Shown one piece after another: positions 16,123-62,021 of a stretch of 64,000 bases of DNA. The stretch comes from Escherichia coli (GTDB lineage: Bacteria; Pseudomonadota; Gammaproteobacteria; Enterobacterales; Enterobacteriaceae). The stretch lies in NCBI RefSeq assembly GCF_002854065.1, contig NZ_CP024147.1. One strand, 5' to 3'. Numbering within the stretch: position 1 is the stretch's first letter; each line of letters starts with the position of its first letter. The position numbers and the translations under genes are program-made. The notes beneath the pieces are model-generated. The model made no database searches and had not been told where the DNA came from. It saw only the letters and a list, made by a program, of their open reading frames with translations.

Positions 16123-16294
16123 ATCATTGTCATCTTTCGGGCTGGTCTTCTGCCAGCCCGCTATAATTGCGCAATAAATCCCCATCTGAATACAGACAAA
16201 ACTGGTTTTTGCACACAACGTTAACGATTTGTGGCGTCGGCGCGTATAATGCGCGCGGTTATGTTAACGGTACGCCTGTTTTAAGGAGATAAAG

Positions 16295-16978
16295 ATGACG
16301 GCAATTGCCCCGGTTATTACCATTGATGGCCCAAGCGGTGCAGGGAAAGGCACCTTGTGTAAGGCTATGGCGGAAGCGTTGCAATGGCATCTGCTGGACT
16401 CGGGTGCAATTTATCGCGTACTGGCACTAGCGGCATTACATCACCATGTTGATGTTGCTTCGGAAGATGCGCTGGTGCCGCTGGCATCCCATCTGGATGT
16501 ACGTTTTGTGTCGACCAATGGCAATCTGGAAGTGATCCTCGAAGGGGAAGATGTCAGCGGCGAAATTCGTACTCAGGAAGTGGCGAATGCTGCTTCACAA
16601 GTCGCGGCATTCCCACGCGTTCGTGAAGCATTATTGCGTCGCCAACGCGCGTTTCGCGAATTACCAGGCCTGATTGCCGATGGCCGCGACATGGGAACGG
16701 TGGTATTCCCTGATGCGCCAGTGAAAATTTTCCTTGACGCCTCCTCGGAAGAACGTGCGCATCGCCGCATGCTACAGTTGCAGGAGAAGGGCTTTAGTGT
16801 TAACTTTGAGCGCCTTTTGGCCGAGATCAAAGAACGCGACGACCGCGATCGTAACCGAGCGGTAGCGCCACTGGTTCCGGCAGCCGATGCTTTAGTGTTG
16901 GATTCCACCACCTTAAGCATTGAGCAAGTGATTGAAAAAGCGCTACAATACGCGCGCCAGAAATTGGCTCTCGCATAA
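16295..16978 (+). CDS. cmk: cytidylate kinase
   Basis: 227-aa ORF with P-loop GPSGAGKGT. Confidence 0.95.
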
Positions 16979-17088
16979 GCGACCGAATTTGCAGTACCCC
17001 CGTTGCAATGGAATGACAGCGGGTATGTTAAACAACCCCATCCGGCATGGAGCCAGGTGGACGTTAAATATAAACCTGAAGATTAAAC

Positions 17089-18762
17089 ATGACTGAATCT
17101 TTTGCTCAACTCTTTGAAGAGTCCTTAAAAGAAATCGAAACCCGCCCGGGTTCTATCGTTCGTGGCGTTGTTGTTGCTATCGACAAAGATGTAGTACTGG
17201 TTGACGCTGGTCTGAAATCTGAGTCCGCCATCCCGGCTGAGCAGTTCAAAAACGCCCAGGGCGAGCTGGAAATCCAGGTAGGTGACGAAGTTGACGTTGC
17301 TCTGGACGCAGTAGAAGACGGCTTCGGTGAAACTCTGCTGTCCCGTGAGAAAGCTAAACGTCACGAAGCCTGGATCACGCTGGAAAAAGCTTACGAAGAT
17401 GCTGAAACTGTTACCGGTGTTATCAACGGCAAAGTTAAGGGCGGCTTCACTGTTGAGCTGAACGGTATTCGTGCGTTCCTGCCAGGTTCTCTGGTAGACG
17501 TTCGTCCGGTGCGTGACACTCTGCACCTGGAAGGCAAAGAGCTTGAATTTAAAGTAATCAAGCTGGATCAGAAGCGCAACAACGTTGTTGTTTCTCGTCG
17601 TGCCGTTATCGAATCCGAAAACAGCGCAGAGCGCGATCAGCTGCTGGAAAACCTGCAGGAAGGCATGGAAGTTAAAGGTATCGTTAAGAACCTCACTGAC
17701 TACGGTGCATTCGTTGATCTGGGCGGCGTTGACGGCCTGCTGCACATCACTGACATGGCCTGGAAACGCGTTAAGCATCCGAGCGAAATCGTCAACGTGG
17801 GCGACGAAATCACTGTTAAAGTGCTGAAGTTCGACCGCGAACGTACCCGTGTATCCCTGGGCCTGAAACAGCTGGGCGAAGATCCGTGGGTAGCTATCGC
17901 TAAACGTTATCCGGAAGGTACCAAACTGACTGGTCGCGTGACCAACCTGACCGACTACGGCTGCTTCGTTGAAATCGAAGAAGGCGTTGAAGGCCTGGTA
18001 CACGTTTCCGAAATGGATTGGACCAACAAAAACATCCACCCGTCCAAAGTTGTTAACGTTGGCGATGTAGTGGAAGTTATGGTTCTGGATATCGACGAAG
18101 AACGTCGTCGTATCTCCCTGGGTCTGAAACAGTGCAAAGCTAACCCGTGGCAGCAGTTCGCGGAAACCCACAACAAGGGCGACCGTGTTGAAGGTAAAAT
18201 CAAGTCTATCACTGACTTCGGTATCTTCATCGGCCTGGACGGTGGCATCGACGGCCTGGTTCACCTGTCTGACATCTCCTGGAACGTTGCAGGCGAAGAA
18301 GCAGTTCGTGAATACAAAAAAGGTGACGAAATCGCTGCAGTTGTTCTGCAGGTTGACGCAGAACGTGAACGTATCTCCCTGGGCGTTAAACAGCTCGCAG
18401 AAGATCCGTTCAACAACTGGGTTGCTCTGAACAAGAAAGGCGCTATCGTAACCGGTAAAGTAACTGCAGTTGACGCTAAAGGCGCAACCGTAGAACTGGC
18501 TGACGGCGTTGAAGGTTACCTGCGTGCTTCTGAAGCATCCCGTGACCGCGTTGAAGACGCTACCCTGGTTCTGAGCGTTGGCGACGAAGTTGAAGCTAAA
18601 TTCACCGGCGTTGATCGTAAAAATCGCGCAATCAGCCTGTCTGTTCGTGCGAAAGACGAAGCTGACGAGAAAGATGCAATCGCAACTGTTAACAAACAGG
18701 AAGATGCAAACTTCTCCAACAACGCAATGGCTGAAGCTTTCAAAGCAGCTAAAGGCGAGTAA
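17089..18762 (+). CDS. rpsA: 30S ribosomal protein S1
   Basis: 557-aa ORF with repeated S1 domains; [26 protein letters not shown]... Confidence 0.95.
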
Positions 18763-18921
18763 TTCTCTGACTCTTCGGGATTTTTATTCCGAAGTTTGTT
18801 GAGTTTACTTGACAGATTGCAGGTTTCGTCCTGTAATCAAGCACTAAGGGCGGCTACGGCCGCCCTTAATCAATGCAGCAACAGCAGCCGCTTAATTTGC
18901 CCTTAAGGAACCGGAGGAATC

Positions 18922-19206
18922 ATGACCAAGTCAGAATTGATAGAAAGACTTGCCACCCAGCAATCGCACATTCCCGCCAAGACGGTTGAAGATGCAGTAA
19001 AAGAGATGCTGGAGCATATGGCCTCGACTCTTGCGCAGGGCGAGCGTATTGAAATCCGCGGTTTCGGCAGTTTCTCTTTGCACTACCGCGCACCACGTAC
19101 CGGACGTAATCCGAAGACTGGCGATAAAGTAGAACTGGAAGGAAAATACGTTCCTCACTTTAAACCTGGTAAAGAACTGCGCGATCGCGCCAATATTTAC
19201 GGTTAA
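18922..19206 (+). CDS. ihfB: integration host factor beta subunit
   Basis: 94-aa [32 protein letters not shown]... Confidence 0.95.
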
Positions 19207-19231
19207 GTTTTTACTCAAACTTGAACGCGAG

Positions 19232-19257
19232 AAAAGCACCTGTCGGGTGCTTTTTTC
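19232..19257 (+). terminator. intrinsic terminator after ihfB
   Basis: AAAAGCACC-tgtcg-GGTGCTTTTTT. Confidence 0.7.
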
Positions 19258-19412
19258 ATTTCTCTAATCTGGAACTGGAAGCTGCCTCGCAGAGTTTTGA
19301 GCAGTTTTCACCCTCTCGTTAAATTCTTCTGAATGTGCCTCGGGGAACGCAAAATTCCCACCAGACAACCGCTCAACAAAGTTGCACACTTTCCATAAAC
19401 AGGGAGGGGTGC

Positions 19413-21663
19413 ATGAAAATAACGACAGTCGGCGTATGCATAATTTGCGGAATTTTTCCGTTGCTGATTTTGCCCCAATTGCCTGGGACATTAACCCTTG
19501 CGTCTCTGACCGTCTTCGCCTGCGTACTGGTATTTATCCCTTTTAAAACCGTCCGTTATATCGCGCTGACGTTGCTGTTTTTCGTTTGGGGCATATTAGC
19601 AGCAAAGCAAATTTTGTGGGCAGGAGAAACCTTAACTGGCGCGACGCAGGATGCAATTGTTGAGATCACTGCTACTGACGGTATGACCACTCATTACGGT
19701 CAAATTACTCATCTACAAGGTCGACGTATATTCCCTGCGCCAGGCCTCGTGCTGTATGGCGAATATCTTCCGCAAGCGGTTTGTGCTGGACAACAATGGT
19801 CAATGAAACTCAAAGTTCGTGCCGTTCATGGTCAACTTAATGATGGCGGCTTTGATAGCCAGCGTTATGCCATTGCCCAGCATCAGCCGCTCACCGGCCG
19901 TTTTCTGCGGGCAAGTGTCATTGAACCGAATTGTAGCCTGCGTGCACAGTATCTGGCGTCACTACAAACAACGCTGCAACCCTATATGTCTTGGTTTAGG
20001 TATGGGGGAACGGTTATCCGTCCCTAAAGAAATCAAAAATATCATGCGTGATACTGGAACGGCGCATTTAATGGCGATATCGGGATTGCACATCGCTTTT
20101 GCGGCGTTGCTGGCTGCCGGACTCATTCGCAGTGGACAAATTTTTCTGCCTGGGCGCTGGATCCACTGGCAAATGCCATTAATTGGCGGAATCTGCTGTG
20201 CTGCTTTTTATGCCTGGCTGACGGGAATGCAACCTCCTGCATTGCGTACCGTTGTGGCGCTTGCTACGTGGGGAATGCTTAAGTTAAGTGGGCGACAGTG
20301 GAGTGGCTGGGATGTATGGATATGTTGTCTGGCGGCAATTTTGCTGATGGATCCTGTTGCCATTCTCTCGCAAAGTTTATGGCTCTCTGCCGCTGCGGTC
20401 GCGGCATTGATATTTTGGTATCAGTGGTTTCCCTGTCCTGAGTGGCAACTGCCGCCGGTATTGCGTGCAGTTGTTTCCCTCATTCATTTGCAACTGGGAA
20501 TCACACTTCTGCTTATGCCCGTGCAAATCGTCATATTTCATGGCATTAGTCTGACCTCGTTTATTGCAAATCTATTAGCAATTCCCTTGGTGACATTTAT
20601 CACGGTTCCGTTGATCCTCGCCGCGATGGTTGTGCATTTAAGCGGGCCGTTAATCCTGGAGCAAGGGTTATGGTTTCTTGCCGACCGGTCTTTGGCTTTA
20701 CTTTTCTGGGGGTTAAAGAGTTTGCCAGAAGGGTGGATCAACATTGCTGAACGTTGGCAATGGCTATTATTTTCCCCATGGTTCTTACTGGTGGTATGGC
20801 GATTAAACGCCTGGCGAACGTTGCCAGCAATGTGTGTGGCTGTAGGCTTGCTGATGTGCTGGCCGCTGTGGCAAAAACCTCGACCTGACGAGTGGCAAGT
20901 GTACATGCTTGATGTCGGGCAAGGGCTGGCAATGGTGATAGCCAGAAACGGCAAAGCGATTCTCTATGACACGGGACTGGCCTGGCCCGAAGGGGATAGT
21001 GGGCAACAACTGATTATCCCCTGGCTCCACTGGCATAATCTTGAACCGGAAGGCGTTATTCTGAGCCATGAACATCTGGATCACCGGGGAGGGCTGGATT
21101 CAATATTGCACACATGGCCGATGTTATGGATCAGAAGTCCGTTAAACTGGGAACATCATCAGCCCTGTGTGCGTGGCGAAGCGTGGCAATGGCAAGGATT
21201 GCGTTTCAGTGCGCACTGGCCTTTACAAGGTAGCAACGATAAAGGAAATAACCATTCCTGTGTGGTTAAGGTTGATGACGGGACGAATAGCATTCTTCTA
21301 ACCGGTGATATTGAAGCCCCAGCTGAACAAAAGATGCTAAGCCGTTACTGGCAGCAAGTGCAGGCAACATTGCTTCAGGTACCTCACCATGGCAGTAATA
21401 CCTCATCATCGTTGCCATTAATTCAGCGAGTGAATGGAAAAGTGGCATTCGCATCGGCATCGCGCTATAACGCATGGCGACTGCCCTCTAACAAAGTTAA
21501 GCATCGCTATCAACAGCAAGGTTATACGTGGCTTGATACTCCTCATCAGGGGCAAGTAACGGTCGATTTTTCAGCGCAAGGCTGGCGGATTAGCAGCCTC
21601 AGGGAGCAAATTTTACCTCGTTGGTATCATCAGTGGTTTGGCGTGCCAGTGGATAACAGGTAG
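19413..21663 (+). pseudogene. ycaI: ComEC/Rec2-family inner membrane protein, apparently frameshifted
   Basis: N-terminal part in one frame (ATG 19413 to TAA 20025-20027), remainder in the +1 frame (open to 21663) carrying ...LGLGMGERLSVPKE...TGTAHLMAISGLH and the metallo-beta-lactamase motif HEHLDHRGG; the two frames overlap around 19990-20027. Confidence 0.6.
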
Positions 21664-60924: not shown

Positions 60925-61010
60925 TTTTTTTGCCGCAGGTCAATTCCCTTTTGGTCCGAACTCGCACATAATACGCCCCCGGTTTGCACACCGGGAATCC
61001 AGGAGAGTTC

Positions 61011-62021
61011 ATGTACTACCCCTTCGTTCGTAAAGCCCTTTTCCAGCTCGATCCAGAGCGCGCTCATGAGTTTACTTTTCAGCAATTACGCCGCATTACC
61101 GGAACACCGTTTGAAGCACTGGTGCGGCAGAAAGTGCCTGCAAAACCTGTTAACTGCATGGGCCTGACGTTTAAAAATCCGCTTGGTCTGGCAGCCGGTC
61201 TTGACAAAGACGGGGAGTGCATTGATGCGTTAGGCGCGATGGGATTTGGATCGATCGAGATCGGTACCGTCACGCCACGTCCACAGCCAGGTAATGACAA
61301 GCCGCGTCTCTTTCGTCTGGTAGATGCCGAAGGTTTGATCAACCGTATGGGCTTTAATAATCTTGGCGTTGATAATCTCGTAGAGAACGTAAAAAAGGCC
61401 CATTATGACGGCGTCCTGGGTATTAACATCGGCAAAAATAAAGATACGCCAGTGGAGCATGGCAAAGATGACTATCTGATTTGTATGGAAAAAATCTATG
61501 CCTATGCGGGATATATCGCCATCAATATTTCATCGCCGAATACCCCAGGATTACGCACACTGCAATATGGTGAAGCGCTGGATGATCTCTTAACTGCGAT
61601 TAAAAATAAGCAAAATGATTTGCAAGCGATGCACCATAAATATGTGCCGATCGCAGTGAAGATCGCGCCGGATCTTTCTGAAGAAGAATTGATCCAGGTT
61701 GCCGATAGTTTAGTTCGCCATAATATTGATGGCGTTATTGCAACCAATACCACACTCGATCGTTCTCTGGTTCAGGGAATGAAAAATTGCGATCAAACCG
61801 GTGGCTTAAGTGGTCGTCCGCTTCAGTTAAAAAGCACCGAAATTATTCGCCGCTTGTCACTGGAATTAAACGGTCGCTTACCGATCATCGGTGTTGGCGG
61901 CATCGACTCGGTTATCGCTGCGCGTGAAAAGATTGCTGCGGGTGCCTCACTGGTGCAAATTTATTCTGGTTTTATTTTTAAAGGTCCGCCGCTGATTAAA
62001 GAAATCGTTACCCATATCTAA
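61011..62021 (+). CDS. pyrD: dihydroorotate dehydrogenase (quinone)
   Basis: Start [21 protein letters not shown] (336 aa). Confidence 0.9.

Follow-up and report, generated by a model that had tools for sequence, protein, structure and literature searches.

The translation initiation region of Escherichia coli rpsA: a leader without a Shine-Dalgarno element and its conservation among gammaproteobacterial species

Introduction

How is the mRNA of ribosomal protein S1 brought to the ribosome if the nucleotides preceding its start codon hold no Shine-Dalgarno (SD) sequence? This question is raised by the rpsA locus of a 64-kb stretch of Escherichia coli DNA (64,000 nucleotides, analyzed as a whole and referred to here as the window), in which a first-pass annotation had noticed the missing SD and had attributed it to the known autoregulated initiation region of S1. 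According to the cited passages of four papers (PMC10931766, PMC4408793, PMC3616713, PMC3121790), the E. coli rpsA translation initiation region is without a canonical SD, adopts a specific fold and is autogenously repressed by free S1. The primary studies of the leader, as they are referenced, are Boni 2001 (EMBO J), Tchufistova 2003 (NAR) and Skorski 2006 (J Bacteriol). In the portions cited from PMC10931766, PMC3121790 and PMC4408793, efficient rpsA translation is reported to need ~90 nt of leader and to be specifically repressed by free S1 in trans. Scharff et al. (PMC3121790) used the -91..+21 segment of rpsA as a model of SD-independent initiation and introduced an SD into it by changing A to G at -10, while Fu et al. 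(NAR 2013, PMC3616713) described three hairpins, H1, H2 and H3, with GG residues in the loops L1 and L2 that are important for regulation and with a variable A/U-rich single strand, ss2. We analyzed the leader of the window, its start codon and its first codons by comparison with rpsA loci of other species, and weighed the explanations that might account for the missing SD.

Results

The start codon and the weak SD

The letters of positions 17060-17091, GACGTTAAATATAAACCTGAAGATTAAACATG, with ATG at 17089, match exactly those quoted in the first-pass annotation. This ATG is the true rpsA start, as evidenced by: 1) the S1 product, which matches the E. coli S1 chain of a solved ribosome structure (PDB 6h4n_y) with full identity over residues 1-557 and scores 1186.8 bits with NCBIfam NF004951, the S1 equivalog model, against a cutoff of 918; 2) the RefSeq start of rpsA, which falls on the same base; 3) the in-frame TGA upstream (Table 1), because of which an N-terminal extension of S1 is excluded; 4) an in-frame scan that found no ATG, GTG or TTG in the next 120 codons; and 5) the alignment of the start codon, as part of ATGACTGAATCT and of the N-terminus MTESFA, in 80/80 species, where the frame upstream of it is open for a median of 8 codons. 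An alternative in-frame start behind a good SD, the observation that could have overturned the first-pass annotation, was looked for within these limits and none was found.

The 20 nt preceding the ATG, TATAAACCTGAAGATTAAAC, contain GAAG as the sole SD-like element, which bears out the earlier statement that nothing resembling GGAGG lies there. With SD strength scored as the best duplex that positions -20..-4 form with the 3' end of 16S rRNA (CACCUCCUUA), rpsA reaches -1.0 kcal/mol, comprising 3 bp on GAAG; the preceding gene cmk (AAGGAG) and the following gene ihfB score -9.2 and -9.5 kcal/mol, respectively. As a baseline we took RefSeq-annotated starts in place of raw ORFs, since ORFs opened at their first start mis-call many starts and make a raw-ORF baseline unreliable. 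Among 28 such neighbouring starts (median -5.85 kcal/mol), rpsA is the second weakest, the weakest being lpxK, a coupled gene that overlaps msbA. A weak SD at a single gene is not rare, as 6 of these 28 starts are weaker than -3 kcal/mol, and the rpsA duplex is not stronger than those of 17-mers drawn at random from the window (median -2.5 kcal/mol). What exceeds chance is the conservation of this weakness across species, rather than the weak SD of one gene.

Table 1. Features of the rpsA locus in the window (positions counted from the first nucleotide of the window)
Feature	Position	Strand	Remarks
cmk	16295..16978	+	NCBIfam TIGR00017, E 5.7e-97; RefSeq; internal control for SD strength
Putative sigma-70 promoter-like match, TTGAGC-18-TACAAT	16920..16949	+	inside cmk 3' end; 9/12 consensus matches
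cmk-rpsA intergenic region, rpsA 5' leader / translation initiation region	16979..17088	+	110 nt
Hairpin I (H1)	16999..17023	+	7 bp, CCCGUUG/CAGCGGG; loop 17006-17016, GGA 17010-17012
Linker ss1, UAUGUUAAACAACC	17024..17037	+	single-stranded, ~67% A/U; nearly invariant AAACAAC
Hairpin II (H2)	17038..17060	+	5+3 bp, C.A mismatch; loop AUGGA 17047-17051, GGA 17049-17051
A/U-rich, weakly structured tract from H2 to AUG	17061..17088	+	includes region of published irregular hairpin III
In-frame TGA stop	17077..17079	+	four codons 5' of rpsA ATG
Vestigial SD-like GAAG	17078..17081	+	-11..-8 from AUG; A17079 = -10
rpsA initiation codon ATG	17089..17091	+	ORF, PDB identity, RefSeq
rpsA CDS	17089..18762	+	557-aa ribosomal protein S1 (bS1)
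rpsA codons 2-10 (TESFAQLFE)	17092..17118	+	synonymous sites nearly frozen

Absence of the SD in 80 species

To place the E. coli value among its relatives, 80 rpsA loci were drawn from one-genome-per-species collections, covering many families of Enterobacterales together with Vibrionaceae, Shewanellaceae, Alteromonadaceae, Ferrimonas, Oceanisphaera, Idiomarinaceae, Orbaceae and Aeromonadales-like taxa. In none of these 80 gammaproteobacterial species does the SD of rpsA attain -4 kcal/mol (the strongest is -2.7 and the median -1.0), as compared with 78/80 for the adjacent cmk in the same loci, where 72/80 reach -6 or stronger and the median is -8.7 kcal/mol. The GAAG element itself is kept in 55/81 leaders and its AAG in 78/81. 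A single A-to-G change at -10 (position 17079) would turn GAAG into GGAG and improve the computed duplex from -1.0 to -6.4 kcal/mol; this change was seen in no lineage among the 80 species. Because the count is 0/80 for rpsA vs. 78/80 for cmk, and because GGAG is only one change away, the comparison shows an absence of SD that is maintained by selection.

Two covarying hairpins with GGA loops

Among the matches listed, the leader is 100% identical to those of E. coli genomes, in which the flanking genes are annotated as cmk and rpsA, and positions 16900-17300 have at least 99% identity in 5425/5426 complete E. coli genomes. We aligned 78 distinct leaders (-110 to +15) with MAFFT and applied RNAalifold to this alignment, which recovered H2 and missed H1, because indels in the H1 loop misalign the inner pairs. 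H1 and H2 were then defined on the E. coli row and built into a covariance model, R1, with which 81 sequences were realigned and H1 was recovered. In this model-fitted alignment, which leans toward its own model (H2 being already clear on the unfitted one), 87.3% of H1 and H2 cells are paired vs. 31-43% in controls with the 3' partner slid, with 231 vs. 25-61 double-change (compensatory) cells and a covariation score of 0.548 vs. at most 0.136; none of 500 shuffles attained the observed value in any of these three measures. At the leader, model R1 reaches 114.5 bits, and it finds no second match in the window.

H1, which is also present in the minimum free energy (MFE) fold of the E. coli leader, shows changes on both sides at 7/7 pairs (79 distinct sequences), and GGA lies within its loop in 81/81 sequences. 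In H2, pairing holds in 97.5% and 91.2% of cells, and compensatory changes occur at 6/8 pairs, the basal three pairs being nearly invariant and the upper pairs covarying; its loop carries GGA in 67/81 sequences and UGA instead in the other 14/81. An anti-SD scan placed the strongest match of the whole leader, -7.0 kcal/mol, on AGGUGG at 17055-17060. This hexamer forms the 3' arm of H2, where it is paired, and at 29-34 nt from the AUG it lies too far away to act as a normal SD. The comparison recovered the published anatomy, namely H1 and H2 with their GGA loops, the A/U-rich linkers and the vestigial GAAG, and with a leader identical to that of E. coli, the earlier attribution of the missing SD to the autoregulated S1 initiation region is supported.

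To define the phyletic range, eight outgroup rpsA loci, a small set, were scored with R1: one from Pseudomonas, metagenome-assembled genomes of Xanthomonadaceae, Oceanospirillaceae, Sedimenticola and Marinagarivorans, and three further contigs, with the rpsA start of one locus (L082) set at MSDSFA and the upstream ATG of its gene call rejected. These loci reach at most 8.5 bits vs. 52-116 bits inside the clade. Their rpsA starts have short AGG, GGA or GGGG elements at SD distance that are moderately stronger (-2.7 to -6.2 kcal/mol), and cmk-rpsA synteny is kept in most of the eight. The leader is restricted to the E. coli-like clade; it occurs in Enterobacterales, Vibrionaceae and Shewanellaceae but not in Pseudomonas, in agreement with the published range, in which the E. 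coli-type rpsA leader is confined to several gammaproteobacterial families and missing from Pseudomonadaceae (PMC4408793; PMC3616713).

The tract before the AUG and the first codons

Between H2 and the AUG, the tract is 19-34 nt long and on average 77% A/U in the 81 sequences, as compared with an average of ~52% A+T for the loci, and its local folds range from 0 to -4.7 kcal/mol. The AUG of rpsA has a predicted probability of 0.90 of being unpaired. A candidate hairpin III at 17063-17088 is 74.8% paired, a value matched by 128/500 shuffles, with sequences too conserved to covary, so that covariation speaks neither for nor against this hairpin. The MFE fold also predicts a helix across the start codon, between GAAGAUU (17078-17084) and AAUCUUU (17096-17102), which is paired in 86.9% of cells with only 5 double-change cells, reflecting mostly conserved sequence; with almost no covariation, it was not adopted as part of the leader model. 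One could speculate that this helix holds the AUG in a loop of 11 nt, as part of a non-contiguous entry site for the ribosome and S1, such that GAAG would owe its conservation to pairing within the mRNA rather than to contact with rRNA, but we consider this unlikely.

Within the coding sequence, codons 2-10 have a normalised codon entropy of 0.20, which is lower than that of any other among 192 nine-codon blocks (median 0.57). Among the 80 species, TCT is used in 72/72 and GAA in 80/80 cases, with TTT, GCT and CAA at 92-99%; of these, TTT and CAA are non-preferred codons. Third positions in this block are 90% A/T vs. 58% further on, and the synonymous freeze spans at least five gammaproteobacterial orders. 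With so little synonymous variation left in codons 2-10, the translation initiation region is probably extended to ~+30 by a constraint at the RNA level.

Genomic surroundings

The genes aroA, ycaL and cmk lie upstream of rpsA, and ihfB, ycaI and msbA downstream. A scan for promoters found no more sites than in shuffles, so that the sigma-70-like match in the 3' end of cmk (Table 1) stands at chance level; it is a possible candidate for an internal rpsA promoter, as judged from its letters, and no convincing promoter was found upstream of 16998. We rejected -91 as a transcription start, as this position only marks how far upstream the 5' UTR of a reporter construct extends (PMC3121790). Further downstream, ycaI has lost 14 bp between 19988 and 19989, a rare frameshift that splits the gene into two ORFs and is common to only 2/5419 E. 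coli genomes.

A search of Rfam 15 returned no family matching 16979-17088 at E<=10, and over 16200-19400 at the same threshold only terminator-like chance matches after rpsA and ihfB. Elsewhere in the window, the PyrD leader at 60943-61016 is the only Rfam family above its gathering score.

Discussion

We conclude, with a probability of about 0.9, that the element ahead of rpsA in this window is the E. coli rpsA translation initiation region, an SD-less leader of ~90-110 nt. Compared with the published E. coli leader (Boni 2001; Tchufistova 2003; Skorski 2006; Fu 2013, PMC3616713), it has the same sequence and phyletic range, lies at the same place 5' of rpsA, and shares GAAG at -11..-8 with A-10, the A/U-rich linkers, and H1 and H2 with their GG(A) loops; no difference was found, hairpin III being the one published feature that the comparison neither confirmed nor contradicted.

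How such a leader works can be surmised by setting these features beside the published experiments. Rather than being docked by pairing between SD and anti-SD, rpsA mRNA would be recruited through its own fold, with hairpins I and II and their GGA loops, the A/U-rich single strands and the unpaired AUG as the likely entry features. S1 contacts have been reported on A/U-rich single strands of the rpsA leader (PMC3616713), and experiments published for the same sequence have established that S1 bound to the 30S subunit makes such contact with the leader. Once S1 is made above the demand of the ribosomes, free S1 would bind the same A/U-rich leader, compete with the 30S subunit and repress translation; it could win over the 30S subunit because no SD helix anchors the latter. 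According to the passages cited from PMC10931766, PMC4408793 and PMC3177188, several S1 molecules probably bind A/U-rich single strands cooperatively. With a real SD, as after the change of GAAG to GGAG, the ribosome would be expected to win and control to be abolished, which is in line with the loss of autogenous control of rpsA described for this change in the cited part of PMC4408793. S1 binding, competition and repression are thus taken from the literature.

Among the other explanations that we considered, the simplest is that an unstructured, A/U-rich start region alone gives SD-independent initiation, with no special leader mechanism. The predicted accessibility of the AUG (0.90), the 77% A/U content and weak folds (0 to -4.7 kcal/mol) of the tract before it and the 90% A/T at third positions of codons 2-10 all agree with such a proposal, as does the report by Scharff et al. 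that expression falls to 11.9% when structure is added at the rpsA start (PMC3121790). However, this explanation leaves unaccounted for the H1 and H2 hairpins that are maintained by covariation, together with their GGA loops 40-80 nt upstream, as well as the S1-specific autorepression and its loss with GGAG, and the published need for ~90 nt of leader also argues against it. As a full account we regard it as quite unlikely; the unstructured start region fits better as part of the accepted model than as an alternative to it.

A second proposal holds that the GGA triplets of loops I and II act as a discontinuous SD, pairing together with the anti-SD of 16S rRNA. It draws on the conservation of GGA in both loops (81/81 and 67/81), on the importance of GG in L1 and L2 for regulation (Fu et al., PMC3616713) and on a computed duplex of -5.6 kcal/mol between AUGGAG of loop II and the anti-SD. 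Against this stand the distance of the loops from the AUG, 37-79 nt, and the 14/81 leaders in which loop II has UGA and not GGA. Work with specialised ribosomes by Skorski et al. in 2006 is also said to have shown that the GGA loops are not a split SD, as compensatory anti-SD changes in these ribosomes reportedly failed to rescue mutants in which GGA had been changed to CCU. The title of that paper, as it appears in the reference lists of PMC3121790 and PMC3177188, likewise speaks of an rpsA translation initiation region without an SD element. Taken together, we find a split SD improbable.

Translational coupling, whereby ribosomes ending cmk would re-initiate at rpsA, might be entertained on account of the adjacency of the two genes on the same strand, syntenic in 80/80 loci, and of lpxK, the only start nearby with a weaker SD, being a coupled gene that overlaps msbA. 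Nevertheless, the cmk stop lies 110 nt from the rpsA ATG here and 43-224 nt elsewhere, far above normal coupling distances, the gap is filled by a conserved structured leader, and rpsA fusions with only -91..+21 are translated efficiently without cmk (PMC3121790). Coupling is therefore highly improbable.

Equally little can be said for a mis-assigned rpsA start, with the real one at another in-frame codon after a normal SD. Nothing supports it in E. coli, and the one observation in its favour comes from the Erwinia/Pantoea group, where the SD-like GGUGGA of H2 is followed, after 7-9 nt, by an in-frame TTG located 8 codons ahead of the start. The TGA at 17077, the lack of ATG, GTG or TTG in the next 120 codons, the identity of S1 to solved chains from residue 1 onward, the concordant RefSeq start and the start aligned with MTESFA in all 80 species behind an upstream frame that soon closes leave this reading with virtually no probability. 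That the SD of this one gene is weak by chance and without functional significance, an idea suggested by the ~20-30% of E. coli starts or random 17-mers at -1 kcal/mol or weaker, is excluded by the contrast of 0/80 rpsA with 78/80 cmk starts in the same genomes, and the retention of GAAG one mutation from GGAG and the published mutagenesis also speak against it.

The rpsA leader can be compared with other mRNAs that are translated with a weak SD or none. The leader of rplY (L25) resembles it in several respects: the mRNA is a highly expressed one for a ribosomal protein, it has a weak SD-like GAGA and a conserved 5' structure, its autogenous repression is lost on a change to GGAGG, and its phyletic range is similar (PMC4408793). 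The rplY leader differs in its repressor L25, a specific binder of 5S rRNA, in its fold and gene, and in keeping a 3-bp SD-like pairing. The fis mRNA and other E. coli mRNAs with A/U-rich enhancers and no true SD are likewise translated efficiently, via A/U-rich S1 targets (PMC4408793), but their product is not an autogenous repressor and they are without the GGA-loop hairpins I and II. A cyanobacterial motif upstream of rpsA is also presumed to be S1-related (Fu et al. 2013, PMC3616713); according to these authors it has no resemblance to the E. coli RNA, and the two cannot be compared in either sequence or fold.

That E. coli rpsA has an SD-less leader autoregulated by S1 is already known and has been experimentally explained since 2001. 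Although published, the leader appears to be uncurated in Rfam 15, and genome annotation pipelines will therefore not label it. As the exact sequence has been published and dissected, the present analysis carries little weight as a discovery and its value is confirmatory: the comparison of 80 genomes restates, independently and in quantitative terms, the phylogenetic argument already in the literature.

Anti-SD complementarity and predicted pairing at the rpsA start

In the rpsA leader, the strongest complementarity to the anti-SD (the 3' end of 16S rRNA), with a predicted duplex energy of -7.0 kcal/mol, resides in AGGUGG, which forms the 3' arm of hairpin II and lies 29-34 nt upstream of the rpsA AUG. 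We noticed that leaders of the Erwinia/Pantoea type (e.g. L007, L011, L017, L024 and L033 among the related rpsA loci) harbor an in-frame TTG 8 codons 5' of the ATG, positioned directly 3' of the counterpart to this element. Closer to the start codon, two segments are complementary, GAAGAUU on the 5' side of the AUG and AAUCUUU in rpsA codons 3-5; they pair in the minimum free energy fold, placing the AUG in an 11-nt loop. Across species, 86.9% of the cells of this helix are paired but covariation is almost nil, so the comparison argues neither for the helix nor against it.

Features in and around rpsA (window coordinates)
Feature	Position	Strand	Remark
Promoter-like match, TTGAGC-18-TACAAT (sigma-70)	16920-16949	+	within cmk 3' end
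AGGUGG	17055-17060
GAAGAUU	17078-17084
rpsA codons 2-10	17092-17118
AAUCUUU	17096-17102
Terminator-like hairpin and T-run	18773-18794	+	directly past rpsA stop
Terminator-like hairpin and T-run	19229-19257	+	directly past ihfB
ycaI ORFs	19335-20027; 19819-21663
ycaI 14-bp deletion	19988/19989
lpxK start	~23445		23560 in locus L089
PyrD leader (Rfam RF02373)	60943-61016	+	97.9 bits; gathering score 47

Neighboring features

The promoter-like match, about 140 nt 5' of the rpsA ATG, is a candidate internal rpsA promoter and is taken as a lead only, because the number of sigma-70-like sites in the promoter scan was not above that in shuffles. Weak, sub-threshold Rfam matches to ctRNA, RNAI, InvR and PhrS coincided with the two terminator-like hairpins; they reflect the terminator shapes and are not true family members. 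Across the 64-kb window, the PyrD leader was the sole Rfam family to score above the gathering cutoff.

Among the annotated neighbors, lpxK alone has a weaker SD (-0.9 kcal/mol) than rpsA (-1.0 kcal/mol). The lpxK ATG shares 4 nt with the 3' end of msbA, and such an overlap of a start codon with the preceding gene usually marks translational coupling. Compared with E. coli EC974, the ComEC-family gene ycaI lacks TGGAATGCGGTTAT, a deletion that shifts the frame and splits the gene into two ORFs. Of 5419 complete E. coli genomes, just 2 carry this form, including strain 100416.

Gene calls and locus retrieval

For the outgroup rpsA loci, most of the S1 proteins on the homology-search list were "partial" products of 330-470 aa. 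In four long contigs (L081-L084), rpsA was broken into two or three calls, probably owing to frameshift errors from long-read assemblies. The call in L082 additionally begins at a wrong ATG upstream of the true start. Within L001-L080, a second block of low synonymous entropy (0.24-0.34) falls at rpsA codons ~190-199. Since it overlaps in part with ENLQEGME, the peptide pattern used for locus retrieval, this block may stem from how the loci were selected and have no biological basis.

Synonymous constraint in the first rpsA codons

Across the 80 species, which span several orders, synonymous sites in rpsA codons 2-10 are near-invariant, with TCT used in 72 of 72 cases, GAA in 80 of 80, and TTT, GCT and CAA in 92-99%. 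The normalised codon entropy of this stretch (0.20; median 0.57) is the minimum among 192 nine-codon blocks, and 90% of its third positions are A or T vs. 58% further into the gene. Collectively, the near-frozen synonymous sites, low entropy and A/T-rich third positions suggest that the RNA constraint of the rpsA initiation region extends to about +30.
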